NCBI GenBank assembly: GCA_018714345.1 | Contig: DVNO01000036.1 | Location: 240 to 64,239 of the forward strand | Source of the DNA: Candidatus Enterousia avicola | GTDB lineage: Bacteria; Pseudomonadota; Alphaproteobacteria; Rs-D84 | DNA length: 64,000 bases | Reading direction: 5' to 3' | Shown here: positions 3,688-60,346 of the stretch, piece after piece | How positions within the stretch are numbered: the stretch's first letter is position 1 | Layout of the letters: every line of letters begins with the position of its first letter | Notes under the pieces: model-generated | The model's input: the letters and a program-made list of their open reading frames with translations, nothing else | Told to the model about the DNA's origin: nothing | The model's database searches: none | Translations under genes and position numbers: made by a program

Positions 3688-5260
3688 TGATTACATCCTT
3701 TATACGACTTACAACCTTATCTTGTCCCATAACTTGCATAATAGAATACAAGTCTGGTGTATTTGTGCGACCTGTTAAAGCCACGCGCAAATTCATTGCT
3801 ACTTCACCATTTTTTACGCCTTTATCGGCGGCGATTGCAACAATCTTTGCCCACCAAGAATCTTTATCATCACAAATATCAAATGTTGATAAAAACGCAG
3901 ATAATAAATCTTTATTAAATTCGTAATCTTTATTTGACACAAACAAATCATCCCAGAAGTAAGAAACCTCCTGCAAAGTTTGTTTCCACGTAATAAAATC
4001 CTTGCGAATACGTTTTGGGTTGTCGCGTTCAATAGCCAAAATATTTTTCAAATATTCTGGATCATTACCGATTCGCGCCGCCCATTGCAAATCATATTCA
4101 TCGGCCCAATCACGAACCCGCTTAACCAATTCATCAACTGGCAAGGTAGCGATATATTCTTTCGCCCACCATTCAAGTTTTTTCATATCAAACAAGGCGC
4201 CAGACATAGGTATCTTCTTTGGACGCATTTCGTAATCCCAAATAGATTTTACCTGTCCTTTAGATTTGGCCTCTTCATAACCAGATGCCGCAATATTTCC
4301 AAGGTACTCTAAAACCGCCTCAACTGGCCAACCATCTTGAAGGAAGAAAGCCACATTAGCTTCTGGATCATGGCGTTTTGATAACTTGCGCTGCTTACCA
4401 GTTTCTTCATCAATTTTATCGATTGTAGAGGTATGAATATATAACGGCGGTGTCCAGCCCATCATCCTAAATAATTGAATATGCAGCGGGAACGAAGGCA
4501 ACCACTCTTCCCCACGAACGACATGAGTCGTACGCATAAAGTGGTCATCACACAAGTGTGCAAAATGGTATGTCGGCAGTCCGTCATTTGATTTTATTAA
4601 GACAATATCTTCATTATTTTCTGGGAAACCTATAGAACCACGGACAGCATCTTTACAAAAAATACGATTCGCTGGGTTGCCCATAGAATACAAACGAATC
4701 GATGGCACTTCACCCGCATCCAATCGACGTGTTATTTCTTCTTCTGATATATCTCTATCCCGCGCAAACTCGCCATATATACCAGTTGCAAAACCAGCTG
4801 CCTTTTGATTTTCACGAATTTTATCCATATCTTCCGGCGTCAGAAAACATGGGTACGCCAAACCACGTGCCAACAAATCTGCTGCTACACTGTGATAAAT
4901 ATCTTTACGCTGAGACTGATAATAAGGCCCATATTCTGGAATATCGTTGTATTCCAAACCGAATCTGTGCATAGAATCTTCAATTATCCTGACTGCGTCA
5001 GCAACCTCGCGCTTGGTATCCGTATCTTCTATGCGCAACATAAACACCCCACCAGATTGACGGGCCAATTTACAATCAATAAACGCCTGATATAAGCCAC
5101 CAATATGCATATACCCTGTCGGGCTTGGTGCAAATCGTGTAACAAACGCCCCTTCTGGTAAATTACGTGGAGGATATTTTGCCTCTAACTCTTCCAAAGT
5201 GTATTTTGGTGCTGCACCCAATACACGTGCAATAACCTCTGCTGATAAACCTTTACGCAT
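3680..5260 (-). CDS. gltX: glutamyl-tRNA synthetase
   Basis: Class I HIGH motif RFAPSPTGYMHIGG and KMSKS-like KLSKR. The FAPSPTG signature indicates GluRS rather than GlnRS. There is roughly a 40-aa N-terminal extension upstream of the HIGH motif. Confidence 0.88.
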   Translation of the reverse strand: MRKGLSAEVIARVLGAAPKYTLEELEAKYPPRNLPEGAFVTRFAPSPTGYMHIGGLYQAFIDCKLARQSGGVFMLRIEDTDTKREVADAVRIIEDSMHRFGLEYNDIPEYGPYYQSQRKDIYHSVAADLLARGLAYPCFLTPEDMDKIRENQKAAGFATGIYGEFARDRDISEEEITRRLDAGEVPSIRLYSMGNPANRIFCKDAVRGSIGFPENNEDIVLIKSNDGLPTYHFAHLCDDHFMRTTHVVRGEEWLPSFPLHIQLFRMMGWTPPLYIHTSTIDKIDEETGKQRKLSKRHDPEANVAFFLQDGWPVEAVLEYLGNIAASGYEEAKSKGQVKSIWDYEMRPKKIPMSGALFDMKKLEWWAKEYIATLPVDELVKRVRDWADEYDLQWAARIGNDPEYLKNILAIERDNPKRIRKDFITWKQTLQEVSYFWDDLFVSNKDYEFNKDLLSAFLSTFDICDDKDSWWAKIVAIAADKGVKNGEVAMNLRVALTGRTNTPDLYSIMQVMGQDKVVSRIKDVING

Positions 5261-5813
5261 TTTTATTTTCCTTTTCCCATTCTGACTTTAACTTAGAATA
5301 AGTATACACATCTTTCAACTTATCATAGATCATATAACTCTGACGACGAATGCCCTCACAAACATATCCTGCACGCTTTGCAACATTTTCAGATTTTATA
5401 TTTTCTGTCTCCATAATAATTTCTATTCTGTTCACATCCATATTTTTAAATGCAAAGTCTTCTAACTTTTTAACACAACGCGTCATTATACCACGACCGG
5501 TGTATTTATTTGACAGCCAATACGCAATCTCAGCAATTTTATTTTTTTTAGAACTAATATCAACACCAACGTTTCCAACTATTTTTCCATCGTATATTAT
5601 GTAATAAGACCCATTATCAGTTTGGGAGACTTTATACATATGCATAAACATATCTTCTGGACAGCGAGATTCATCAATCCAGGACAAAAAGCGACGTAAA
5701 GAATCACGCTCGGCATCTACAACATCAAAAATTCTACGCGCATTTTCAAATGTAGGTTCTATTTTCTCTAATGTTATATCGTCAAATTTAATGACCTTGG
5801 GGTATTCTGTCAT
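5253..5813 (-). CDS. GNAT family N-acetyltransferase (RimJ/RimL-like)
   Basis: Acetyl-CoA binding region YWLSNKYTGRGIM...; GNAT fold length of 186 aa. Confidence 0.7.
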   Translation of the reverse strand: MTEYPKVIKFDDITLEKIEPTFENARRIFDVVDAERDSLRRFLSWIDESRCPEDMFMHMYKVSQTDNGSYYIIYDGKIVGNVGVDISSKKNKIAEIAYWLSNKYTGRGIMTRCVKKLEDFAFKNMDVNRIEIIMETENIKSENVAKRAGYVCEGIRRQSYMIYDKLKDVYTYSKLKSEWEKENKNA

Positions 5814-5857
5814 ATTTTAACCTTGTATTCGTATACGCTGAATTTTATACTAATTAT

Positions 5858-6493
5858 ATGGAAAAACAAGAAATAAGAACTTTTGGACGCCGTCACGGCA
5901 AGAAATTATCAGCACGTCAAAATTTATTACTAGAAGCCGTGCTGCCAACCATAAAGCCGGCAAATTTGCCATTAAACACGTCTATGATTTTAGAAATCGG
6001 CTTCGGTTCAGGTGAACATCTACGCGAAATAAGCCGGCAAATGCCGGATAAAATCATAATTGGTGCCGAACCTTTTATGAATGGCGTAGCATCGCTATTA
6101 TCGGCAATCACAGATACAAACAATTCGATTCGTTCTGAATACAAAAATATAAGAATTTTTCCTGATGATGTCCGAGACTTTTTACATAATACCGATTCGA
6201 AATTTGAACAAATATGGGTTCTACATCCTGACCCATGGCCAAAGGCACGCCATGAAAAACGGCGACTTTTAAACGCAGAATTTTTAACGTTATTATCTAA
6301 ACACCTAACCCCAAACGGAGAAATAATAATAGGCACAGATCATTGGGAATACTTTGACTGGATAATAGAACAAGTAAAACATACCACGCTTACGGCAACT
6401 ATACCAGACCTGGCAACCATACACACCCGCTATCAAGAAAAAAATAAAGCCGGCACAACATCACCAAAGTACATGGTTCTTACAAATAGTTGA
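5858..6493 (+). CDS. trmB: tRNA (guanine46-N7)-methyltransferase
   Basis: SAM-binding EIGFGSGEH motif and TrmB-like length and architecture. Confidence 0.85.
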   Translation: MEKQEIRTFGRRHGKKLSARQNLLLEAVLPTIKPANLPLNTSMILEIGFGSGEHLREISRQMPDKIIIGAEPFMNGVASLLSAITDTNNSIRSEYKNIRIFPDDVRDFLHNTDSKFEQIWVLHPDPWPKARHEKRRLLNAEFLTLLSKHLTPNGEIIIGTDHWEYFDWIIEQVKHTTLTATIPDLATIHTRYQEKNKAGTTSPKYMVLTNS

Positions 6494-7148
6494 TAAAAAA
6501 TTTAACTTTCTGCGATAAATCAGGCCTAATTGCTTGAAACAAGCGTGCAGTTTGCTCTATACGATTACCGTTGTTACCCAAAAGAAAATGAAATTCGAAA
6601 TCATCTTCGGGCGTCAAAGCGTTCAGCGCAGCATAAACCCTGCCTACGTAATCAGAATTATCACCTTCATCTTTTGGTAAAACCAACAATAATCCACTTG
6701 CCCGCATTTTTTTTAATGCATCAAATAAGTGTTGCCATTCAAAAGGCCCTAGTTCATTTATATCAATACCAAAAAATAGAGACTTATTAAAAAACAAATC
6801 ATCTCTTATCAAATATAATTGAGAAACAAACGCATCTATATCTCGCATAGCGACAAAGACCTGTGCACCATCTGCCCCATTTTTAAATGCTTGGTTTATT
6901 TTAGCGGACAAAAAGGAAATTTGGTCTGAGTCTTGACCCTTTAAGTAAAATCGTGAGAAAATTTTGACCTGTTTTCCTTCCAACCAGGGCCACACGATAG
7001 AAACAGAATCTGTTCCAACAGACATATATGGGATTCGCTTTTCTATAGCAACCGAAGCAGCCTGAGCCAAATCAGTTGGTTCAATTCCAGCCGAGCACCA
7101 TATTGCCGCCTCACTAATATTATCAAGAATGTTATCCGGACTTATCAT
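6480..7148 (-). CDS. hypothetical protein
   Basis: 222-aa ORF with no recognisable motif. It sits divergent to the 7182 cassette. Confidence 0.45.
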   Translation of the reverse strand: MISPDNILDNISEAAIWCSAGIEPTDLAQAASVAIEKRIPYMSVGTDSVSIVWPWLEGKQVKIFSRFYLKGQDSDQISFLSAKINQAFKNGADGAQVFVAMRDIDAFVSQLYLIRDDLFFNKSLFFGIDINELGPFEWQHLFDALKKMRASGLLLVLPKDEGDNSDYVGRVYAALNALTPEDDFEFHFLLGNNGNRIEQTARLFQAIRPDLSQKVKFFINYL

Positions 7149-7181
7149 TGCTCTTTTTACTTTATCACAAAATATGATATA

Positions 7182-8150
7182 ATGAAAATCAATATGAGAA
7201 TACGCTTAGACAATGTATTACTGTGCATATTATGGATCCTAGCGGTAACACTGGGCGCATGTTTTTGGTTTAATACAGTATTTGGTTTCAATATATTTTC
7301 TGGCGAACATTGGGAATATGTCGCATCCTTGCAGGCGACCAAAGCACCGATTAAAACTACATTTTACGTTTCAATGGCAATCACGATATTTGTAGCTATT
7401 CTGGGCTTATACATGGTAGTCAGACCAAGTATGAGGAAAATTCGACTGCCCATAATAAAAAAATCTAATCACACAAATGATATAAAAACGCAAAAAGTCC
7501 AAGACGCTACAACTACACAAAGCATCAAACCAGATACAGATGCATCCACATTAGATATTATCTCTGAGGGTGCACAACAAGGCATAGCCGCCTCCCCTCG
7601 TCCACAGGGACCATCTGCGTCTGCAAGGCCACCCAGACTTGTGCTGCCCAAAATAAACAATACCGGCGCATTTCAACAACCCTCATCTCAACTGTCACCA
7701 ATAGCACAACCAAGAAATACTGGGCCAACTGATGAAGACGTAAAAAAGCTAGAAGAAATTTTCACAAACGCTGGCTATGCAGTAAAAAAGAACGCACGCG
7801 TAAACGGCATAATGACCGCATTAATTGCGATTGGTTCTAACGAGACAATGTGGCTTGGCTGCGTTGGTGTGCCAACAACTAAAGTAAGGGAAATAATAGA
7901 AAAATTTGAACAGATTTTTTCTGACACCTTAGACGAAACAGAAATAAATATAAATGGTTTTACCATTTCTGCGCCGGATGAAAGCACATCAGAATTTGAA
8001 GACATTCTTATGTTTAAAACAATTGAAGACTTGCAAGCATATATGCAAGACAAACAAAATCCTCTTCCGGAAGACGACGAAGATAGGGAAATGTTTGACG
8101 CCTACTCTCAATACATAGACGCAGTAATAACGCACATAGGATTGATTTAA
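7182..8150 (+). CDS. membrane-anchored hypothetical protein with P/S/Q-rich low-complexity linker and acidic C-terminal domain
   Basis: Two N-terminal TM helices, then a roughly 100-aa disordered P/S/T/Q-rich segment (ASPRPQGPSASARPPRL...SSQLSPIAQPRNTGPT), then a globular C-terminal domain. Because a TGnTATAAT element overlaps 7182, the true start may be the ATG at 7194. Confidence 0.55.
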   Translation: MKINMRIRLDNVLLCILWILAVTLGACFWFNTVFGFNIFSGEHWEYVASLQATKAPIKTTFYVSMAITIFVAILGLYMVVRPSMRKIRLPIIKKSNHTNDIKTQKVQDATTTQSIKPDTDASTLDIISEGAQQGIAASPRPQGPSASARPPRLVLPKINNTGAFQQPSSQLSPIAQPRNTGPTDEDVKKLEEIFTNAGYAVKKNARVNGIMTALIAIGSNETMWLGCVGVPTTKVREIIEKFEQIFSDTLDETEININGFTISAPDESTSEFEDILMFKTIEDLQAYMQDKQNPLPEDDEDREMFDAYSQYIDAVITHIGLI

Positions 8151-8659
8151 TGCAACTAACTAAAGAAATTGCAGAAAAAAAATTATCAGACATGAATATG
8201 AGAGACATGCCGATAATGGACTATCACCCTATTCCGGCAATGGTTGCACCTGATTGGTTTAAAAAATATAAAAAACTGTGTCATGAATTTATAATATCTT
8301 TAACAGATTCAATAGAACAACTTGCTTTTATGAACCTATCACAAGACGAGTTTATGGCGTTAATTACGGGTCGCAAGATACCACAGAATCTTTCAATCAG
8401 ATTTCGTGTACCACTTATATGGGGCGGCAAACTAGAAATAGATAATATGTTCATGTGCTGGACGTTTCCAAACTCTCAAAACTTGGATAGGTTTATACAA
8501 GATCAAAATGATGCGAACATCGTATGGTTACCAAATCCCGCCACAAAAATTTATGTACCTGGTCATAATCTGAGTGGTGGTGATGGTGGAAACGCAACAG
8601 AAGACAGGCTTAGCCAAATGGCAGCACAAATAGCAGCATCGCGCGGAATGGAACAATAA
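8150..8659 (+). CDS. hypothetical protein (169 aa), translationally coupled to upstream gene
   Basis: Its start ATG overlaps the upstream TAA (TAATG). It contains a Gly-rich SGGDGGNATEDR segment. No confident family assignment. Confidence 0.5.
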   Translation: MQLTKEIAEKKLSDMNMRDMPIMDYHPIPAMVAPDWFKKYKKLCHEFIISLTDSIEQLAFMNLSQDEFMALITGRKIPQNLSIRFRVPLIWGGKLEIDNMFMCWTFPNSQNLDRFIQDQNDANIVWLPNPATKIYVPGHNLSGGDGGNATEDRLSQMAAQIAASRGMEQ

Positions 8660-8667
8660 AGGCAGAA

Positions 8668-9102
8668 ATGAATTGCAATGAATTTATATCTTTAATGAAA
8701 TCCCATGGTGCAAAATTTGCACCAGCAGCATCTATGCCTTCGATAACATTAGCTAACACAACGTTGCAAAATATTCGCGCTGCAATGCTACCAAAATCCA
8801 TTACAGATTTATATATGCAATGCAGCGCCTTGAACCTTGGGAATGGCTATATATTTGGCCCGACAGAGATAAAACGTGGAAACAAATATCCAATTCCAAG
8901 TATAATTGACATAAACACAAAGCTATCCGGCTGTCCGAGTTTACTTGGTAAAACCGTCTTTGGTAGGAACGATTTGTTTTGGTTTGCTTTTGATTCCTTT
9001 GGAACATATTTCATGTTAGATAACGTGACATTAAAACAGCTGCGAAAGTACGAGGACCCTTATAAAGCAATGTCGGACTGTTTAATTGCTGGGAACATAT
9101 AA
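8668..9102 (+). CDS. putative SUKH (SMI1/KNR4)-like immunity-family protein
   Basis: The N-terminal pattern ...LPKSITDLYMQCSALNLGNGYIF and the C-terminal LFWFAFDSFGTYFMLD resemble the SMI1_KNR4/SUKH-1 signature (LP..Y..FL...NGG ... D..G...L.D). The call rests on my motif reading alone. Confidence 0.45.
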   Translation: MNCNEFISLMKSHGAKFAPAASMPSITLANTTLQNIRAAMLPKSITDLYMQCSALNLGNGYIFGPTEIKRGNKYPIPSIIDINTKLSGCPSLLGKTVFGRNDLFWFAFDSFGTYFMLDNVTLKQLRKYEDPYKAMSDCLIAGNI

Positions 9103-9310
9103 AATGAAAAAATTATCCGTATCTTTATCTGGTCACCAAACAAGCATATCACTAGAGAAAGAATTTATTGATGCCTTGCACGAAATATCTTTAAAAGAGA
9201 ACAAATCTATTGCTTCTATAATAGAACACATAGACGACAACCGTGCCCCTGATTCAAACCTATCATCTGCGATAAGGGTTTGGATTTTTAAAAGATATTA
9301 TAAAGCATAA
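9086..9310 (+). CDS. ribbon-helix-helix (RHH_4) domain protein
   Basis: GHQTSISLEKEFIDAL...NLSSAIRVWIF matches the RHH_4 pattern (r.TSvsLE.eFw.aL...nLSSAiRvfvl). It overlaps the upstream gene by 17 nt. Confidence 0.6.
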   Translation: MLGTYKMKKLSVSLSGHQTSISLEKEFIDALHEISLKENKSIASIIEHIDDNRAPDSNLSSAIRVWIFKRYYKA

Positions 9311-9313
9311 TTT

Positions 9314-11326
9314 TTAATCACGCTTTTCTAACGTAGCCAAGAGAATCGTGCACATACAAGAAAATAGCAATATAATAATCATCATACCATCACGACCAAT
9401 TTCTCGATATATTGTACTATGCGCACCGTAAAGGCTTCCATCCATATATCCCTGCTCTGCAACTGGTATTTCTGAAACGACATTGCCATCTGACAATATG
9501 AAAGCGCTAATACCGGAATAATTTGCCCTAACAATTGGCAACCCCGATTCGATTGCGTATCTGCGCACCATGTCCAAATGTTGATAAGTTCCTGGGGTAT
9601 TTCCAAACCAAGTATCATTAGTAATATTTATTATTGCGTCAGGTTTTTCTGCATTTGGAACCAGTGAATCAGAAAAAATTATTTCATAACAAATGGCCGG
9701 CGCAAAACTAAAAACCTTACCATTAATATCAATCGTTATTATTTCTGCCCCATTTCCTTTTGATAATTGACCAGGCGTAGGAATGATGTCACCAAACGGT
9801 CTGTATTCGCCAAACGGAACCAAATGAGACTTACTATAAACTGTCTGAATTGCTCCACCTGGGGTGGCCACAACCATAGAGTTATATAAACTTCCATTCA
9901 TATATGACGTAGCCCCTATGACAACATTATTGTTCAACGCAGCGGCTATTGGCATATCATCACCTTTCAACACAACAAATGGATAGGCTGTTTCTGGAAA
10001 CACAATTAAATCTGGATTACCTGGTCCCTTTGCTAATTCTATAAGAGTATTAACATTATCTGTCGCATTACGAATCGCTTCTTCTCTTGAATGAGTCGCT
10101 TTTTGTTCTGCACTAAGCGCGGGCTGCACAATGCGTATTGTCTGGGTATAATTGTCACTATTATTTGCCTCTGTAATATTTCTATACCCATACAAGGTCC
10201 CAATTCCAGCAAGGGTCAAGAATAATACGAAAGCACCCCAAGAATACTTATTTCTTTTATTCAAAATAAGTTCAACAATAATGGCAATCAAACCAACTAA
10301 AACGAACGTTGTTCCCAAAGCCCCCCAAAGCGCCATGGAATTTGCAAGAATTGGAAACGGCATCAAAATATTAGCCAACGGGTTCCAAGGAAATCCAGTT
10401 AGCAACCACTCGCGCAACCACAAAACAAAAGTCCATACCGCAGCAAACAAAAATGCTCTACATGCTGGTTTTGTGCGTATACAAGAAATTGAAACAAACG
10501 GAATTGAAAAAATTATTCCACCTAATATTCCGATTCCAATAATCGCAGGTATTGTCCAAACTGCAAATTGTTCTGCCAGTTCTGGTACAACAAATATAGA
10601 ATTAACGACCCACCAAAACATAGCTATTGAATAAACCGCACTAAATGGGAAAACGCGTAAGAAGACTTTAAAAACACCTGCCCCAGAAATATTACGAACA
10701 ACTATGGCATAGGCAAACGCTATAGCTATTAAAGTTGCCCACCATAAATGAGTTGGCGCAAAACCTAAGGCAGCCACACCGCCAAGGACTGCCATTATTA
10801 AATACTGTCCAAACCCATTCGGTTTAAATTTTATTCGTTTAAAAAAGGAATAAATTTTGCTGCCTGGACAACATGAAAAATCGCTGCATACGCCTAAATC
10901 CTGCACATAGGGATTTTTTATTCCCATAGAATTTAATATTTCTGTCTCTTTTTTTTCCATTATTTCTGCTTCACTATCTTTTATATGATCATAACCTTGA
11001 AGATGTAACATTCCATGGACAACCATATGAGCAACATGATCCTTAACAGAAATATTTTCTTTTTTTGCTTCTTTCACAATTGTATCTAAGGATATATAAA
11101 TATCACCTAATAAAATATCATCACCCAGTTCGAAAGACAGAACATTTGTGGGCCTATCTATATTACGATACTTTCGATTTATTTCATGAATCTCCTCATC
11201 ATTGGTAAGAGTAATCGAGACCTCTGCTTCCGGTCCTGCATAAACAACCGCAGCATTGGCTATTTTATTAAAATCAATCTTATACTTACGCCAACGTTCA
11301 TCGTTGTAATTTATACATACTTTCAT
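9314..11326 (-). CDS. in-frame fusion of endoribonuclease YbeY and apolipoprotein N-acyltransferase Lnt
   Basis: The ATG at 11326 (MKVCINYN...) lies 14 nt after the upstream stop. The YbeY zinc motif HMVVHGMLHLQGYDH sits at about residues 100-115 of this CDS. Lnt TM helices and a CN-hydrolase domain follow with no stop codon in between. The ORF track extends to 11464, but that stretch overlaps the upstream gene. Confidence 0.8.
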   Translation of the reverse strand: MKVCINYNDERWRKYKIDFNKIANAAVVYAGPEAEVSITLTNDEEIHEINRKYRNIDRPTNVLSFELGDDILLGDIYISLDTIVKEAKKENISVKDHVAHMVVHGMLHLQGYDHIKDSEAEIMEKKETEILNSMGIKNPYVQDLGVCSDFSCCPGSKIYSFFKRIKFKPNGFGQYLIMAVLGGVAALGFAPTHLWWATLIAIAFAYAIVVRNISGAGVFKVFLRVFPFSAVYSIAMFWWVVNSIFVVPELAEQFAVWTIPAIIGIGILGGIIFSIPFVSISCIRTKPACRAFLFAAVWTFVLWLREWLLTGFPWNPLANILMPFPILANSMALWGALGTTFVLVGLIAIIVELILNKRNKYSWGAFVLFLTLAGIGTLYGYRNITEANNSDNYTQTIRIVQPALSAEQKATHSREEAIRNATDNVNTLIELAKGPGNPDLIVFPETAYPFVVLKGDDMPIAAALNNNVVIGATSYMNGSLYNSMVVATPGGAIQTVYSKSHLVPFGEYRPFGDIIPTPGQLSKGNGAEIITIDINGKVFSFAPAICYEIIFSDSLVPNAEKPDAIINITNDTWFGNTPGTYQHLDMVRRYAIESGLPIVRANYSGISAFILSDGNVVSEIPVAEQGYMDGSLYGAHSTIYREIGRDGMMIIILLFSCMCTILLATLEKRD

Positions 11327-11339
11327 AACGAAACCTATT

Positions 11340-13277
11340 TTATGCAATATTTTCTTTTTCCACTGTACCGCGCCGCCTAATCTTAAAAGCCTTGCTTTTT
11401 CCATTGACACGTTTAGCCGCCTCAACAAAATTTTGCCCTTTCTGGCGAAGCAATTTGTTGACACGTTTTATATCTTTTTTTACCCCTATATTCCCGTTAC
11501 GCACAGATAGCTTATAGTTCTTCAAAGCACGTTCTAGATCGCCAATTTGTTCGTACGCAAATCCAGCATTATACTGAGCCGCGGCATATTGACTTTTATC
11601 TCCTATTCTAGTCAAAATTTCGCGCGCACATTTTATTGCTTTTTCATACAATCCAAGATTGTTGTATGTGGCGGCTAAATCATTATGTAACAACGCATTA
11701 TCCGGGAAGCTTTTTAACATATTTTCCAACTGAGCCGCTGCACTTTTATAATCTTTTTTAGAATATGCCAGCATAGCATTTTCATATAAATCATCATATC
11801 CTATGGTATAAGTTTTCACAGTAGATATTTTTTCAGTTTTTGCATAATAATCTACAAAATCATTATTACCTAGTACACATTTACCACTTTGGCAAAGCAA
11901 TAAAGCATCGTCCGGTAAATAATCAGAAACCTTTTTCCAATTTTTTAGACTTTTCCCTTTCTTGTCCCTTGGATTTTTTAACCATTCCTTAAATACCTTG
12001 TACGTTTTTTTATTAACACGTGGTCCCGAAACATCACTTTCAAAAAAAGCACTTTTTTCTTTTCCCATAAGAGAAAAAAATTCATACATACCATTTATAG
12101 GACAATTTAATAACATTTGTGGTGTTATATCTCCCGTCATCAACCCAGCTTCTAACCAGCGCCGCCAATACATTCCCTTTCCTCCGGCCAAAAAACCACC
12201 CAATTTATTAGCGACCTCATTTTTATCGGAACCACTAAGCCAAGCTTCTCCGAAACTTCTTGGTTTTCGTACAGGATAAACATCAAAACACTGTTTCACT
12301 AAAGAATCTGGAAGTGCATAACCGTACTCCTTATAAAGCTTACGTAATTTATCAAATCTATTTTTATGATTAGAGTCTTTCGGGGCTTCTATCAATTTAG
12401 AATATGCATTATATACAACAGACCCTATACCCAAGGCTTCGCTAGTTGTTTCTATGTGAACATTATCTTGAGACACATCATAACAATAAAGAACAAAAAA
12501 TGTTTCATTTTCTAAATGCCAACGCGCAAGCTCATATGCCTCTTCATCTGTTATTGGTGGTGTACTCATAGTAACTTTTGTACCATCTTTCAAAACAGTT
12601 GAACCAAAGCCTATTGTTGGAATTCCCTTTGAGTCACGATATGGAGTATGCATGCCGTTTTCATTAATGTGTACCCCCTCTTTTACTATTAAATCGGCTA
12701 TCAAAACAGGTGTTATAGGTTTTATTCTTTCTAAGAATGCTTTATAAGTACCACTAAATGCTTTTTTTTCTTCGCTGTCCAGTTTCCATTCTTTATAATC
12801 ATGCTCTATTTCTTGTTCATATTTAGCAGTTACATAGCCAGCCCCAGATACAGCAGTTAAACCCAATAACCACAAAATATGAGCAGATAAATTAGGATAC
12901 TTTTTTGCAAACGAAGATACTTTTTTGGGTTTACCTTTTTTGTTTTTACCAACAGTCATATCAGAAAAATTTTTTTCCATTTTACGCAGGAAAGCATTAT
13001 CCATAGTCAACCAACGCGCTAAAGTTAATAAAAACTGTGCACCACCAGCAGCCAACCACGCAGACCACTTAACTGCCCCCAAACCAAAAATACCGGCAGC
13101 GTCCATAAACTTTGCATTTTTATCTTTTATCCCAGCGGATTCTCTCTTTTGCCGTCTTTCTTTTATAGTTTTTACGACTTCCTTTTTCTCTATAAATTTA
13201 CGTAATTTTTTTGCAAGCTCTTCGGGAACAGCAACATTCTTTCTAAACTTTTCTGACATAGTAATTTGCTCCTTCAC
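11340..13277 (-). CDS. membrane-anchored GH24 (phage-type) lysozyme-domain protein with C-terminal TPR repeats
   Basis: Two hydrophobic segments near the N-terminus. The GH24 signature KEGVHINENGMHTPYRDSKGIPTIGFGST matches (EG...Y.D..G.pTIGxG). TPR-like repeats sit at the C-terminus (YNNLGLYEKAIKCAREIL..., AQYNAGFAYEQIGDLERALKNY). Confidence 0.7.
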   Translation of the reverse strand: MKEQITMSEKFRKNVAVPEELAKKLRKFIEKKEVVKTIKERRQKRESAGIKDKNAKFMDAAGIFGLGAVKWSAWLAAGGAQFLLTLARWLTMDNAFLRKMEKNFSDMTVGKNKKGKPKKVSSFAKKYPNLSAHILWLLGLTAVSGAGYVTAKYEQEIEHDYKEWKLDSEEKKAFSGTYKAFLERIKPITPVLIADLIVKEGVHINENGMHTPYRDSKGIPTIGFGSTVLKDGTKVTMSTPPITDEEAYELARWHLENETFFVLYCYDVSQDNVHIETTSEALGIGSVVYNAYSKLIEAPKDSNHKNRFDKLRKLYKEYGYALPDSLVKQCFDVYPVRKPRSFGEAWLSGSDKNEVANKLGGFLAGGKGMYWRRWLEAGLMTGDITPQMLLNCPINGMYEFFSLMGKEKSAFFESDVSGPRVNKKTYKVFKEWLKNPRDKKGKSLKNWKKVSDYLPDDALLLCQSGKCVLGNNDFVDYYAKTEKISTVKTYTIGYDDLYENAMLAYSKKDYKSAAAQLENMLKSFPDNALLHNDLAATYNNLGLYEKAIKCAREILTRIGDKSQYAAAQYNAGFAYEQIGDLERALKNYKLSVRNGNIGVKKDIKRVNKLLRQKGQNFVEAAKRVNGKSKAFKIRRRGTVEKENIA

Positions 13278-54826: not shown

Positions 54827-57340
54827 CTAATCGTTGCAACGGGCTAAATCATCATACATTTTGTATTTAGCCTCGTGCGTTTGCCGATATTCGTAAGGTG
54901 CACGACCGACCAAAAAGATGTCTATTACCTGCTTTACTTTCTCTACGGCCGCTTTCATCATTTGCTCTGTAACGACCGAGTCATAGTTAACAGTCTTCAC
55001 ATCTCTATTTTTTAACTGCAAAAACATCATCACAGGCGTTTGCGATTTTATGGTGGTTTTTATCGGAAAACCACCTTTTTGTAAAATATATGCTTCTAAC
55101 GGTAATTGAGGCATAGTCCCCTTTTCTAGATTAGATTTAGATGGAACCGCACCAGTTTTAATATCCATTACCCCGCCATCCCATATACGGTCTGCACGTG
55201 CCCTGACAGTATGACCATCTATTGTTATTTTACCGTCAATTTCTGGTACAGAACCAACCAAATCTGTCATCAGATTTGCAACAACTGGCGCAATTTCTAA
55301 AAACCTTTTATGCCAAAAGTGAAACAATACACTGTCTGCACCAAGCTTTTCTAACGCCCTTGCATCCATTTCTTGAACCAATGTGGTTGGCGAAAAATCA
55401 CTACTTTTTTCTATAACCTCGTGCACTAAATTACCAAAATCCCTTGCATCTGGCAACGCCCAGTAATCATTTAGAACACGTAACCTTAACAAATGCCGTA
55501 CATAAAAAGCATATGGATTATGAATCAATAGCTCTAAATCTGTAACATATATATCCCCCCAATCAACAGGTGGACAAGGCGCAGAGTAATCAAGTGGCAA
55601 TAGTTCAACTTTATCCCTGCCCCGAACAATAGACAGCACAGACTTTTCAAAATCTACATCATATTTTCCACGCCTAACGGCCACCCTAGACAAGAATCTG
55701 GACGGCATGGTTTTCACCCCACCAGACGTAGAACTTCGTGTCCAAAAAACATCTTTACCACAAGACAAGTTCATAAAATCTAGCGCCTGCAAAGAAACTT
55801 TTCTATCTGGTGACGGTAACCCAATTTTTTCAGCTATATCACGTGGCAACCATGCGTTTTCATATCCCTGGGCAGGAAACATTCCATCATTTAGCGCTGT
55901 CAAAATTACCACATCCGCCGTCTGCATTCGTGATTCTATTGTTCCTAACACGATAATTTTAACATCTTCATCTATCTGTGTACGCACCTGAACAGAACTA
56001 AGTGCATCTGCTATAAAAGAACGGGCATCAGCTAAAGTTAGTCGCATATTCAGCGTCTTTAAACATTCAGACAATTCTTTCAATGCCTGCCAAATTTGAA
56101 TAGAATCACTTTCATCCAGCAAAAACTTAGGTTCGAAATCAAGTTCATAATCATCAACAATGCTAACAAGCGTTCTAATTAAATCATAGCCACAAGAACT
56201 ATAAACATTATCAAAAAAAGACGTATCATAATTTTCTATCCATTCGTCAAATTTATTTAATATAGCCCGCCCTAAAAGCGTCCTTGTGCCAGGTATTGCA
56301 CCGGAAAAATCTGCCTTTAAACCACGTGCCTTAAATTCTGCCGCTATACGTTGATTTCCGGCCGCATCGGGCGTTATAACCAATACTGTTTTATTTTCTT
56401 CAACTGCTTGGGTTGCAATCTCTGCAACAACAACCGCTTCTTCGCTCTCCCTTTCACAATTAATTAAATGGCAATGCGATAAATCTGTAAATTCCTGCGG
56501 TATATCTGTATCGTTACCAAAAGCACAGTTGAAAAAGTTTATACAACTTTTGCCAACATCTATCGGAACTAGCTCTTGCATCGACACCCCTATACGATTT
56601 AAAAACTTATATTCCGCATTATACGGATTAGTAGCCAGTATAAAGTCTTCATGTCTTCCATCAATATGACCAGATAAAATAATTCTTCCATTCGGCATTT
56701 TCGCTATGGCTTCCATCAAATCTGCCGTTGCTGGAACACTTGCCGTTGAACCACAAACGACAACCAGTTTATACTTGTCTAGCGACTTTATCCACGCCCT
56801 GATATCAGAATTACGTACCTGAGTTTTAGTTGGTTTGTTATTGGTAACAAGCTTTTGTGCCTCAGACAAAATGTTTAGTAGCTTGGCCTTATGTTGGAAA
56901 TGTGCTGCATACTTATCATCAACAAGTTCCATCCAATTTATTTCGGTTACATCAACACCTTCGTTTTCAAGATAGTCCTGCATGCGTAACAAATCATGCG
57001 CCACAGGTAACGCCGTTACAACATTTCCTATACTTGCATCAGCCACAAGTAATTTAGTAATTAGGGCCAACCTCATAGTATCTGATAGCGCATCAACAGA
57101 TTCTTCATCTTCTTCTGAATTTTCATCTGACCCCTCGCCCAGCGCAACCAAGCGCGGTAAAAAAATACTATGACCTGCCCTATCAACTAAAAACTTTTCT
57201 AAACCTCGTACAGCACGACGACTCGGCAAAAAAATCAACATATCGGACAAAGGCACGCCAGAATCCTGTAATACTTTATACAAAGCATCCATCATCCGCG
57301 CTGGATTTGTCGCATAAAAAATGTTTTTATTTGATGCCAA
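54827..57340 (-). CDS. AddB-like PD-(D/E)XK nuclease family protein
   Basis: 837-aa protein with a C-terminal RecB-type nuclease motif ...RADRIWDGGVMDIKTGAVP (compare DYKTG). No addA is adjacent. Confidence 0.55.
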   Translation of the reverse strand: MASNKNIFYATNPARMMDALYKVLQDSGVPLSDMLIFLPSRRAVRGLEKFLVDRAGHSIFLPRLVALGEGSDENSEEDEESVDALSDTMRLALITKLLVADASIGNVVTALPVAHDLLRMQDYLENEGVDVTEINWMELVDDKYAAHFQHKAKLLNILSEAQKLVTNNKPTKTQVRNSDIRAWIKSLDKYKLVVVCGSTASVPATADLMEAIAKMPNGRIILSGHIDGRHEDFILATNPYNAEYKFLNRIGVSMQELVPIDVGKSCINFFNCAFGNDTDIPQEFTDLSHCHLINCERESEEAVVVAEIATQAVEENKTVLVITPDAAGNQRIAAEFKARGLKADFSGAIPGTRTLLGRAILNKFDEWIENYDTSFFDNVYSSCGYDLIRTLVSIVDDYELDFEPKFLLDESDSIQIWQALKELSECLKTLNMRLTLADARSFIADALSSVQVRTQIDEDVKIIVLGTIESRMQTADVVILTALNDGMFPAQGYENAWLPRDIAEKIGLPSPDRKVSLQALDFMNLSCGKDVFWTRSSTSGGVKTMPSRFLSRVAVRRGKYDVDFEKSVLSIVRGRDKVELLPLDYSAPCPPVDWGDIYVTDLELLIHNPYAFYVRHLLRLRVLNDYWALPDARDFGNLVHEVIEKSSDFSPTTLVQEMDARALEKLGADSVLFHFWHKRFLEIAPVVANLMTDLVGSVPEIDGKITIDGHTVRARADRIWDGGVMDIKTGAVPSKSNLEKGTMPQLPLEAYILQKGGFPIKTTIKSQTPVMMFLQLKNRDVKTVNYDSVVTEQMMKAAVEKVKQVIDIFLVGRAPYEYRQTHEAKYKMYDDLARCND

Positions 57341-58714: not shown

Positions 58715-60346
58715 ATGGATTTTTCAATGCATATGAATAGATTTTTTGCTTTTTTGGCTTTATTGATGGTTACGGGATGCGTCTCGGAACCCGTTCAGCA
58801 AACGAACTGGTTTAGCGAATATGGAACGCTAGAAACAGGTACACCTATACAAATGCAATATGGTTCACCGGACATGCAACCGGGCGACCCATCAGATAAT
58901 CTTATAGGTGCCCCCGTACACAGGATGGCAGTAATGTTGCCATTGTCTGGCAATGCAGCATCTACTGGTCAATCAATAAGAACTTCTATTGAAGCGGCCG
59001 TATTGCAAAACGCCCCTATGAATCTGTCTGTTGCATTTTATGACACATCATCAAATATTACAGACGCAATAAATACTGTATTATCAGATAATCCAGAAGT
59101 CATAATAGGCCCAGTATTTTCAAGCGATGTCCGTGCATTACGAAACGCAAAACCAGAAGACCTGCCGGTATTATCATTCACGTCAGACGCCGCATCTATC
59201 GGGGATGGGGTCATGACAATGGCATTAATGCCAACAAATGGCGTTGAAGCAATTGTAAAAGAAATGTCTTTGGATGGAATAAAGGGTTTTATAATCTTGG
59301 CACCAGACACATTGTCTGGGAAATTGATGGCTGGCGCCGCGGTTGAAGCGTCCGAAATATATAATGTGCCAACAAAGGGTATATTTTATTATAAAGAAAA
59401 AAACTCAGAGTCCATAAAGAACACAACTATTGCAGCATCTATGAATGCGGCACGTACAGCTGCAAATACCCGTGCACGAGAAATATTATCAGATATACTA
59501 GTTTCTGAACGATTAACCGCTCTTGAGAAATCGTCTCTGACCTTACAATTGGAACGCATGTCAAAACTTGAAACTATTGGTTCATTGCCATATGATGCAG
59601 TTCTATTTTTAGGCAATGGTGATGATGCGGAAAGTTTAGCATCATTTTTACGCTATTATGGTGTAAGTTCCAAAGAGGCAAAATTTTACGGAACAGCACT
59701 ATGGGAAGGTTCAGATATTGCAAATGATTTCACAATGATTGGTGCAAAATATGCAGCATTACCGGATACTGCACCAGAGTTCGTAAATTTATACGAACGC
59801 ATATCTAATTCCAAACCAAATCACCTATCAGGTTTTGGTTATGACGCCGCCAACATGGCAATGGGGATGATATATTCACCAAAAACTGATGCAGCGTACT
59901 TACTAGATCCAAGTGGTTATGCTGGTGTAGAGGGACTATATCGTTTAAAACCGACCGGTGAAAACGAGCGTGCATTAAATATAGTACAACTGGCTGGGAA
60001 CGGCACAACTGAAATCGTCAGAGAGGCAAACAAAAATTTCCTGACTCCAATTTATAACATAGAACAGACCAAGGTAAAGCCTGCAAATGCAATGGATTTG
60101 GAAACACCTGGTATAAATCCAAACGACTATATAAGCATTCCACAGCGTCTGCAAAGCAAATATAAATCCAAGACCTATGGGGCACACATCACTCGCGCCC
60201 CTATCACACAACCTCAACAAGTTGAAAGCATTGTGATTTTACCCGAAGATGATAGTGACCCTGTAATAACATCACCCGACTTTCAACCAATAACGCTTGA
60301 ATCGGTTGACCGCAGCTATATCGACAGCATAGAGATAGAAGAATGA
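58715..60346 (+). CDS. periplasmic-binding-fold lipoprotein (LpoA-like / PBP activator-like)
   Basis: Lipobox LMVTGC, type-I periplasmic binding protein fold, and divergent from rsmI as yraM is in E. coli. Confidence 0.5.
   Translation: MDFSMHMNRFFAFLALLMVTGCVSEPVQQTNWFSEYGTLETGTPIQMQYGSPDMQPGDPSDNLIGAPVHRMAVMLPLSGNAASTGQSIRTSIEAAVLQNAPMNLSVAFYDTSSNITDAINTVLSDNPEVIIGPVFSSDVRALRNAKPEDLPVLSFTSDAASIGDGVMTMALMPTNGVEAIVKEMSLDGIKGFIILAPDTLSGKLMAGAAVEASEIYNVPTKGIFYYKEKNSESIKNTTIAASMNAARTAANTRAREILSDILVSERLTALEKSSLTLQLERMSKLETIGSLPYDAVLFLGNGDDAESLASFLRYYGVSSKEAKFYGTALWEGSDIANDFTMIGAKYAALPDTAPEFVNLYERISNSKPNHLSGFGYDAANMAMGMIYSPKTDAAYLLDPSGYAGVEGLYRLKPTGENERALNIVQLAGNGTTEIVREANKNFLTPIYNIEQTKVKPANAMDLETPGINPNDYISIPQRLQSKYKSKTYGAHITRAPITQPQQVESIVILPEDDSDPVITSPDFQPITLESVDRSYIDSIEIEE

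Follow-up and report, generated by a model that had tools for sequence, protein, structure and literature searches.

How does a gene pair that resembles a nuclease toxin and its immunity protein come to be part of the core genome of a whole bacterial order? The question is raised by a four-gene cassette, g1 to g4, in a stretch of DNA from Candidatus Enterousia avicola (GTDB order Rs-D84; contig DVNO01000036.1). The whole of this 64-kb stretch is called the window below, and g0 to g4 are open reading frames (ORFs) of it. A preliminary description, made from the sequence alone, had taken the cassette for a toxin/immunity or host-interaction module. The reading that we favour, and to which we would give an even chance, is that g2 and g3 form an exapted, non-toxic HNH–SUKH pair working with a membrane anchor (g1) and a DNA-binding regulator (g4), and that the set derives from a module associated with a type IV coupling protein (T4CP).

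An HNH core without its catalytic histidines

The HNH core of g2 spans residues ~78–119 (nt 8381–8506). The family is small: a profile search of 1.84 billion representative proteins returned only 70 g2 relatives. Neither the g2 profile searched against PDB sequences nor a Foldseek search of the g2 model against the PDB gave a significant match. The link to nucleases runs through distant relatives encoded next to VirD4-type coupling proteins, which carry the stretch PENFNVHLKIPxEYGGxxxFSNLxLIQTHPYHxxIHKFID. Profile comparison with hhalign joined the window g2 family to this distant family (99.0% probability, E 3.5e-18), and the distant family to residues 254–384 of E. coli YhhZ (98.7%, E 3e-16). 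The window family and an IncHI2 HNH protein aligned with a probability of 78%. Moreover, one of the VirD4-linked relatives (P0408) matches genes annotated as HNH endonuclease on IncHI2 conjugative plasmids (E 1e-6). On plasmid NZ_CP067381.1 such a gene, whose product scores above the Pfam HNH cutoff, is followed by a gene annotated as YrhA family protein. In E. coli K-12, yhhZ, which encodes an Hcp N-domain and an HNH C-domain, is likewise followed by yrhA. Judged by these alignments, g2 shares ancestry with the HNH DNase domain that YhhZ-type effectors carry at their C-terminus.

The roles given to HNH histidines follow the colicin E9 literature. In window g2, R84, F85, S109 and D113 replace the general-base His and the three metal-ligand His, and N99 alone is kept. 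F85 falls at the general-base position in alignments to the VHHK motif of YhhZ, VHHKIP of the IncHI2 protein, IHHVVP of pyocin AP41 and HHILP of a group II intron maturase. The single His of the family aligns with the first His of the HH motif, and the second His, three residues before the conserved Pro, is replaced by a hydrophobic residue. A residue census gave R/[FLM]/[SA]/D at the four positions in all 75 Rs-D84 sequences. Of the 44 distant VirD4-linked sequences, 40 showed the pattern H/[LIM]/H/H, and none had the second His of the HH motif. The distant proteins would thus have kept three probable metal ligands and lost the general base. By homology of its ββα core g2 belongs among the HNH/His-Me finger proteins; the general-base His and metal-ligand His/Asn set that defines their active site is lost. 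Since the general base and all three metal-ligand His are gone in 75/75 Rs-D84 sequences, a working HNH toxin is unlikely, and conventional HNH nuclease activity of window g2 appears very unlikely.

Downstream of the core, residues 143–156 (nt 8576–8617) form an invariant C-terminal motif, GGDGGNATxDRLxQ, which is followed by a helix and belongs to a segment absent from YhhZ. It accounts for the Gly-rich loop that had been noted in the 169-residue product. We take GGDGGNAT to resemble one RTX-type GGxGxD calcium-binding turn. The representative search also returned a 1785-residue protein, P0377, with 19 matches to the GGDGGNAT stretch.

A SUKH fold related to YrhA

The g3 protein is basic (pI 8.9) and has the α/β fold of the SUKH superfamily. 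Fold comparison values were 13.4 for YobK, 12.9 for Lin2918, 12.6 for PSPTO_5518, 12.4 for the Smi1/Knr4 family, 10.2 for Knr4, 9.5 for the type VI secretion system immunity protein Tdi1, 9.3 for FBXO3, 8.5 for Atu4351 and 6.4 for Syd. The SUKH assignment, already suspected in the preliminary description, is therefore borne out by the fold. At the level of sequence, window g3 had no Pfam hit, the gathering thresholds of SMI1_KNR4 and SUKH_3-6 were not reached (one of 30 homologues, E 0.05), and the g3 profile found nothing significant among PDB sequences. The NCBIfam YrhA model (NF038335, cutoff 55 bits) matched window g3 with 21.7 bits (E 1.4e-4) and 29 of 30 homologues below the cutoff (best E 8.8e-9). 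The VirD4-linked g3 relatives matched the same model in 20 of 21 cases, some above the curated cutoff, with up to 65.7 bits. The window g3 family in turn aligned with the distant VirD4-linked family (hhalign 99.2%, E 1.6e-19), and the latter with the YrhA protein of NZ_CP067381.1 (94%).

Because g3 is related to YrhA and g2 is homologous to the YhhZ-type HNH DNase domain, descent of the two from a nuclease toxin/immunity pair is supported, and g2–g3 would be a divergent pair of the YhhZ-C-terminal/YrhA type, with g3 the presumed binding partner of g2. This homology, the resemblance of g3 to the immunity proteins YobK, Tdi1 and Atu4351, and the retention of toxin-then-immunity order with translational coupling could also point to a live toxin–immunity or addiction module. 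In such a module g2 (or g1) would be harmful in a non-canonical way, g3 would neutralise it, and the genes would be kept through lethal loss or through antagonism towards other bacteria or a host. Moreover, HNH-DNase effectors of the Hcp-ET1 type with cognate immunity proteins have been described experimentally (reviewed in PMC6730261). However, a toxin–immunity pair in the functional sense calls for an intact active site, and in g2 the general-base His is missing family-wide and the His ligands from every Rs-D84 sequence. The protein also lacks a secretion signal and a trafficking domain, and no cassette protein matched a PADLOC anti-phage defence model. Finally, the genes are single-copy, syntenic across the order and under purifying selection near the level of trmB, with neither immunity arrays nor strain variation. 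We regard a live toxin as distinctly unlikely. The toxin/immunity proposal is thus supported as regards the ancestry of the pair and unsupported as regards its present toxicity.

A core operon of Rs-D84

With each species represented by a single genome, a scan detected relatives of g2 in 259 genomes, and the 80 listed loci were retrieved and compared. They come from uncultured gut, rumen and faecal metagenome-assembled genomes (MAGs) labelled 'Alphaproteobacteria', 'Rickettsiales', 'proteobacterium' or Candidatus Enterousia, apart from two labelled Muribaculaceae; complete chromosomes (0.72 and 0.96 Mb) are among them. The group that bears the cassette is the GTDB order Rs-D84 (Candidatus Enterousia), a reduced-genome order whose members probably depend on a partner (2025 study, PMC12306168). 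Wherever the contig permits, the order g0(−), g1, g2, g3, g4(+) is kept in 80/80 loci. It is also identical on the many gut-metagenome contigs that encode the exact window g3 protein. The cassette is single-copy in Rs-D84 species, with trmB upstream and a ybeY-lnt fusion gene downstream. Because order and spacing are kept in 80/80 species genomes, the four genes form a real operon and are not chance ORFs.

Median identity to the window proteins across Rs-D84 is 74% for trmB, 66% for g2, 66% for g4, 58% for ybeY-lnt, 57% for g3, 44% for g0 and 42% for g1; g2 is conserved nearly as well as trmB. Base composition (GC) is uniform over the locus, and a search of viral contigs found no relatives of the cassette. 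Together with the fixed chromosomal synteny, this led us to reject a phage or mobile-element origin. The operon belongs to the vertically inherited core genome and is no sporadic island. This is the reverse of the sporadic and variable pattern implied by the polymorphic-toxin setting of the preliminary description: g2 is a free-standing protein of 169 residues with neither signal nor trafficking domain, and its locus is present in 80/80 species. The same description had named a conserved, syntenic alphaproteobacterial envelope operon of known function as part of the outcome that would speak against its proposal. Conservation and synteny are what we found; a known function is not.

Such core-gene behaviour in a genome of less than 1 Mb, with trmB and ybeY-lnt as housekeeping neighbours, would also suit an unrelated operon that is specific to this lineage and has a part in the envelope or the cell cycle. 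The similarity of its folds to HNH and SUKH would then be that of incidental scaffolds, and the VirD4 adjacency seen elsewhere would be irrelevant here. In keeping with this idea, g1 is similar to bitopic scaffold proteins that have long linkers. However, significant homologues of three of the four genes lie around VirD4 in other bacteria, and nothing ties the operon to envelope or division genes. We consider this explanation highly improbable.

Linkage to VirD4-type coupling proteins in relatives

The contexts of distant relatives were taken from exact-match contigs and a metagenome scan, which gave 44 metagenome loci in addition to six earlier loci. In every locus long enough the order is g1-like (often two paralogues), VirD4/TraG coupling protein, g2-like, g3-like, and the stop codon of one gene frequently overlaps the start codon of the next. 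Among the Pfam models, T4SS-DNA_transf (E 1e-41), TraG-D_C and TrwB_AAD_bind match the coupling protein. These loci are chromosomal and come from gut and rumen bacteria, with variable housekeeping neighbours. No other genes of a type IV secretion system (T4SS) were seen adjoining them. The nearest plasmid T4CPs are alphaproteobacterial, with 32–37% identity.

Many of the VirD4-linked g2 relatives (in L087–L089, L097, L100, L106–L108, L110–L111, L120 and L127) have a conserved MWDWS motif at the N-terminus, a Pro/Gln/Tyr-rich low-complexity region of 100–250 residues before the HNH-like domain, and a basic tail, ...KSMxGR, which we take to be reminiscent of C-terminal T4SS signals. In several VirD4-linked loci (L100, L106, L107, L131 and L133) the g1-like genes are preceded by genes for recurrent Pro-rich proteins of 320–400 residues (cluster C5) and for a second family (C4/C18), both unannotated.

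Three lineages have no virD4 between g1 and g2: Rs-D84, a 'Rickettsiales' MAG (L093) in which the locus adjoins ybeY-lnt, and L094/95. These are the lineages with the degenerate His pattern, and in them an RHH_4 gene follows g3. A further set of loci (L090–L092) contains a g2–g3 pair only, with neither g1 nor virD4 alongside. In L090 two proteins of 582 and 704 residues are encoded upstream of this pair (3945–7818, minus strand); their N-termini resemble those of type IV pilins, and neither matched a family. Returning to Rs-D84, no T4CP gene was found in the window cassette, in the 80 loci with their ~6-kb flanks, or in the annotated parts of the 64-kb window, the annotated remainder of which consists of housekeeping genes. 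The adjacent T4CP by which a type IV coupling-protein gene module is recognised is thus present in the related long loci and absent from the window cassette.

The VirD4 linkage could mean that g1–g3 are accessory subunits of a coupling complex that is still present. They would dock on a VirD4-type ATPase encoded elsewhere and recruit or gate its substrates, in a role like that of DotM/DotN/IcmSW with DotL, with g4 acting like the relaxosome ribbon-helix-helix (RHH) proteins that contact the coupling protein. The strict adjacency in more than 40 loci of diverse lineages argues for this, as do the T4CPs themselves, which have Walker motifs and acidic tails and match the Pfam TraG-D_C 'TraM recognition site'. 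So does the RHH_4 gene upstream of g1–virD4 in L098, and the analogies to DotL/DotM and TraD/TraM point the same way. However, the Rs-D84 sequences surveyed contain no T4CP or other T4SS gene in the operon, in its flanks in the 80 loci or in the annotated parts of the window. Moreover, the three lineages without a T4CP gene in the locus are those in which the metal ligands and a core segment of g1 are lost, which suggests a shifted function. We therefore rate a persisting coupling complex as unlikely.

The membrane protein g1 and the RHH protein g4

The preliminary description of g1 as a two-TM (transmembrane) protein with a Pro/Ser/Gln-rich linker and an acidic C-terminal domain proved accurate in each part. 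Hydropathy and charge place the helices at residues ~6–30 and 55–78, with a conserved motif, FGFNIFSxxHWxY, in the loop. The linker is variable, measures ~100 residues and carries an RPPRL motif, and the acidic domain covers residues ~181–318 (pI 4.2). The 119 homologues are 34–63% identical. Positive charges lie ahead of TM1 and, as a run of six (RPSMRKIRLPIIKK), behind TM2. By the positive-inside rule applied to these charges, the linker and C-terminal domain are probably cytoplasmic. With g2, g3 and g4 read as lacking signal peptides, this speaks against the surface-presented effector layout that had been proposed.

Comparison by hhalign related g1 to the VirD4-adjacent g1-like family (98.4% probability, E 6e-15). 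The two-TM region, a WxFDIxxxxHWxY motif, the low-complexity linker and the C-domain are common to both. Relative to that family, Rs-D84 g1 has a deletion of ~24 residues which includes the conserved D.E.GDW...PLWFSE segment. The g1-like protein of L094 alone matched NERD (PF08378; 17.3 bits against a cutoff of 22.1, E 0.0068); window g1, which is without the core segment, gave no hit. The C-domain of g1 may be a degenerate NERD-like domain, a possibility that we treat as a lead. The g1 profile had no significant match among PDB sequences, and its interpretation as a ZipA-like or caspase-like Rossmann domain was dropped, the PDB hit being at chance level (E 0.86).

The g4 protein belongs to RHH_4 (Pfam PF13467, E 8.9e-20, 71 bits against a cutoff of 25, profile positions 2–66 of 67), in agreement with its initial assignment as a DNA-binding protein. 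An RHH_4 gene follows g3 in all Rs-D84 loci as well as in the two more distant lineages without T4CP. We consider g4 a candidate autoregulator of the operon and the invariant promoter and dyad described below its candidate target.

A proposed route from a toxin–immunity pair to a non-catalytic complex

We favour the following history. The cassette would derive from a module which, in other gut and rumen bacteria, has a VirD4-type T4CP at its centre, in the order g1-like, virD4, g2-like, g3-like. Its g2 and g3 would descend from an HNH-DNase toxin and a SUKH/YrhA immunity protein, as in YhhZ–YrhA. The general base of the nuclease is gone throughout the VirD4-linked family, and in Rs-D84 the metal ligands are gone as well. 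Because of these losses we propose that the pair was exapted as a non-catalytic, tightly binding g2–g3 heterodimer. This dimer would work on the cytoplasmic side of the inner membrane in concert with g1, with its two TM helices, flexible linker and acidic, possibly NERD-derived domain. g4 would control the operon by binding DNA, the simplest site being the invariant promoter and dyad. In Rs-D84 the complex may serve a translocase encoded elsewhere or have a T4CP-independent function.

Several points weigh against this history. We infer, rather than observe, the binding of g3 to g2, the topology and tethering role of g1, autoregulation by g4 and the non-toxicity of the pair. An Arg and an Asp are invariant at the former active site of g2, which may support unconventional catalysis or nucleic-acid binding. 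The NERD assignment of g1 depends on one sub-threshold match in a distant relative. The absence of virD4 holds for the operon, its ~6-kb flanks and the 64-kb window rather than for whole Rs-D84 genomes. Finally, virD4 may have been lost from the module or inserted into it.

A more specific version is offered tentatively, and we hold it doubtful. It states that g1 (NERD-derived and anchored in the membrane), g2 (a pseudo-HNH protein) and g3 (a SUKH/YrhA adaptor) form a set of coupling-protein partners not described before, drawn from a toxin–immunity pair. In the obligate gut symbionts of Rs-D84 they would have become a VirD4-independent, essential and lineage-defining complex, used for example in the exchange of DNA or protein with a partner cell.

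The components are of known kinds (HNH, SUKH/YrhA and RHH). In the libraries and literature searched we found no account of the order-wide fixation of a catalytically dead pair, of its partnership with a two-TM protein or of a systematic linkage to VirD4. Literature searches on VirD4 with SUKH, on PF13467/RHH_4 and on Rs-D84 with secretion returned nothing relevant. Nuclease toxin/immunity pairs are normally mobile and variable weapons. If the favoured history is true, the cassette would be a clear case of such a pair disarmed and then fixed as core genes across a bacterial order. It also links three Pfam-less families, whose Rs-D84 members are annotated as hypothetical proteins, to the VirD4-type coupling proteins of uncultured gut and rumen bacteria. 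The g1–g3 families are thereby testable candidates for new T4SS accessory factors. As Rs-D84/Enterousia genomes are smaller than 1 Mb and their bearers are thought to depend on a partner (PMC12306168), the conserved operon is also a lead to their lifestyle.

Layout of the locus, promoter region and flanking genes

The ORF listing of the window confirmed four plus-strand ORFs at 7182/7194–9310, and their TAATG junction and conserved order and spacing agree with the tight same-strand run first noticed. The stop codon of g1 and the start codon of g2 overlap in this TAATG (8148–8152), the gap between g2 and g3 is 8 nt, and the g3 stop codon occupies 9100–9102. Gene callers on identical contigs give g4 68 residues and its RHH_4 match begins at residue 2, so that g4 most likely starts at ATG 9104, one base past the g3 stop, rather than at TTG 9086. 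Choice of the wrong start thus probably explains the 17-nt overlap of g3 and g4 reported at first. For g1, ATG 7194 is the most likely start rather than 7182, because homologues align from M5, the callers give 318 residues and ATG 7182 falls within the −10 hexamer.

Features of the cassette and its upstream region in the window.
Feature	Coordinates	Strand	Description
g0	6480..7148	−	222 aa, family not assigned, divergent to g1
g0/g1 intergenic region	7149..7193		divergent promoter region; promoter-like site and cross-species conservation
g1	7194..8150	+	318 aa, two-TM inner-membrane protein; alternative annotated start 7182
g2	8150..8659	+	169 aa, cytoplasmic, YhhZ-type HNH (ββα) core
g3	8668..9102	+	144 aa, SUKH-fold, divergent YrhA-family member
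g4	9104..9310	+	68 aa, ribbon-helix-helix (RHH_4); alternative start TTG 9086

None of the four genes received a housekeeping assignment, as anticipated. Scans of g0–g4 with Pfam, NCBIfam, PHROGs and PADLOC gave no match for g0, g1 or g2. The PHROG matches were marginal, g4 to Arc-like repressor families (E ~0.08) and g1 to an unannotated family (E 0.06).

The extended −10 noted behind the divergent gene is present as TGATATAAT at 7175–7183, with TTTACT at 7156–7161 and a spacer of 16 nt; the promoter-like site scores 10/12, with TG. The 43 nt between g0 and g1 are near-invariant across species (CTTTTTACTTTATCAYAAATATGATAYAAT..AAA..CA-ATG). Identity across Rs-D84 species is at least 80% at about 33 of the 43 positions; the proteins of these species, by comparison, share only 42–66% identity. 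A short dyad, TATCA-N7-TGATA, is formed by TATCA (7163–7167) and TGATA (7175–7179), with 5-bp arms below the threshold of the repeat tool; it may serve as an operator. The ATG of g1 lies ~10 nt past the −10 hexamer with no Shine-Dalgarno sequence (7178–7196), and this spacing is kept across species. Because the ATG is so close to the −10, the g1 mRNA is probably leaderless or nearly so.

The product of the divergent gene g0 is acidic and matched nothing in the libraries searched. A g0 gene adjoins the cassette in 77 Rs-D84 loci, and one whose product is 24% identical (E 2e-13) does so in L093, a distant locus. We regard g0 as a syntenic companion rather than a demonstrated component of the cassette, and it may be co-regulated with the operon.

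On the other side of the cassette, a minus-strand ORF at 9314–11464 encodes a YbeY endoribonuclease domain fused to apolipoprotein N-acyltransferase (LNT_N and CN_hydrolase), and this fusion is retained in Rs-D84 contigs and in L093. In some Rs-D84 loci (L011, L019, L026, L048, L052, L057, L059, L061, L065, L078 and L083) 1–3.6 kb are inserted between g4 and ybeY-lnt. The inserts encode variable proteins of surface type that have signal peptides or are rich in Cys or Gly, among them a recurrent family of ~240 residues, and the region 3′ of g4 resembles a local hot spot for surface-protein genes. A check of the inserts for additional genes of toxins or immunity proteins revealed proteins of secreted or surface type and nothing else. 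Elsewhere in the window, two large ORFs (54827–57340, minus strand, and 58715–60346, plus strand) had no PDB sequence homologue, and the contig index contained no exact copy of either. By eye, we take the first to resemble an alphaproteobacterial AddB-type nuclease/helicase subunit and the second an LpoA-like lipoprotein.

Comparison with known systems

The closest parallel is YhhZ–YrhA of E. coli, where YhhZ is, we assume, identical with Hcp-ET1. In both cases a nuclease-type gene precedes a YrhA gene with overlapping or abutting codons, the g2-like proteins align with YhhZ 254–384, and the VirD4-linked g3-like family lies within or borders on the NCBIfam YrhA family. However, YhhZ has an N-terminal Hcp domain and an intact HH motif, and window g2 has neither, carrying instead the extra invariant C-terminal GGDGGNATxDRL segment. 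Moreover, the E. coli locus is accessory, with yrhA disrupted by IS1 in K-12, whereas the window cassette is fixed across its order.

The IncHI2 pair (e.g. NZ_CP067381.1) is similar in that a free-standing HNH protein of ~190 residues is followed by a YrhA-family gene; the pair adjoins conjugation genes. It differs in that its HNH protein scores above the Pfam cutoff and has the HH motif, and in being plasmid-borne, gammaproteobacterial and without a g1-like or RHH_4 partner.

Compared with SUKH immunity proteins (B. subtilis YobK, PDB 2prv; Smi1/Knr4), g3 has 9–17% sequence identity, and it is single-copy, conserved like a core gene and located outside any variable immunity array. The HNH DNases ColE7, ColE9 and pyocin AP41 with their Im proteins differ on both counts: g2 is without the catalytic His, and g3 has the SUKH fold instead of the four-helix Im fold.

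With the T4CP complexes, as generally known from Legionella (DotL-DotM-DotN-IcmSW) and the F plasmid (TraD-TraM), the likeness would be one of function rather than of membership. The window cassette has no T4CP, and no sequence or fold similarity to DotM, DotN, IcmS, IcmW or TraM was found. However, in the relatives of the cassette the gene immediately before that of the T4CP encodes a two-TM protein whose soluble domain is cytoplasmic, the genes immediately after it encode small soluble proteins, an RHH protein is associated with them, and their T4CP matches the TraM-recognition domain.

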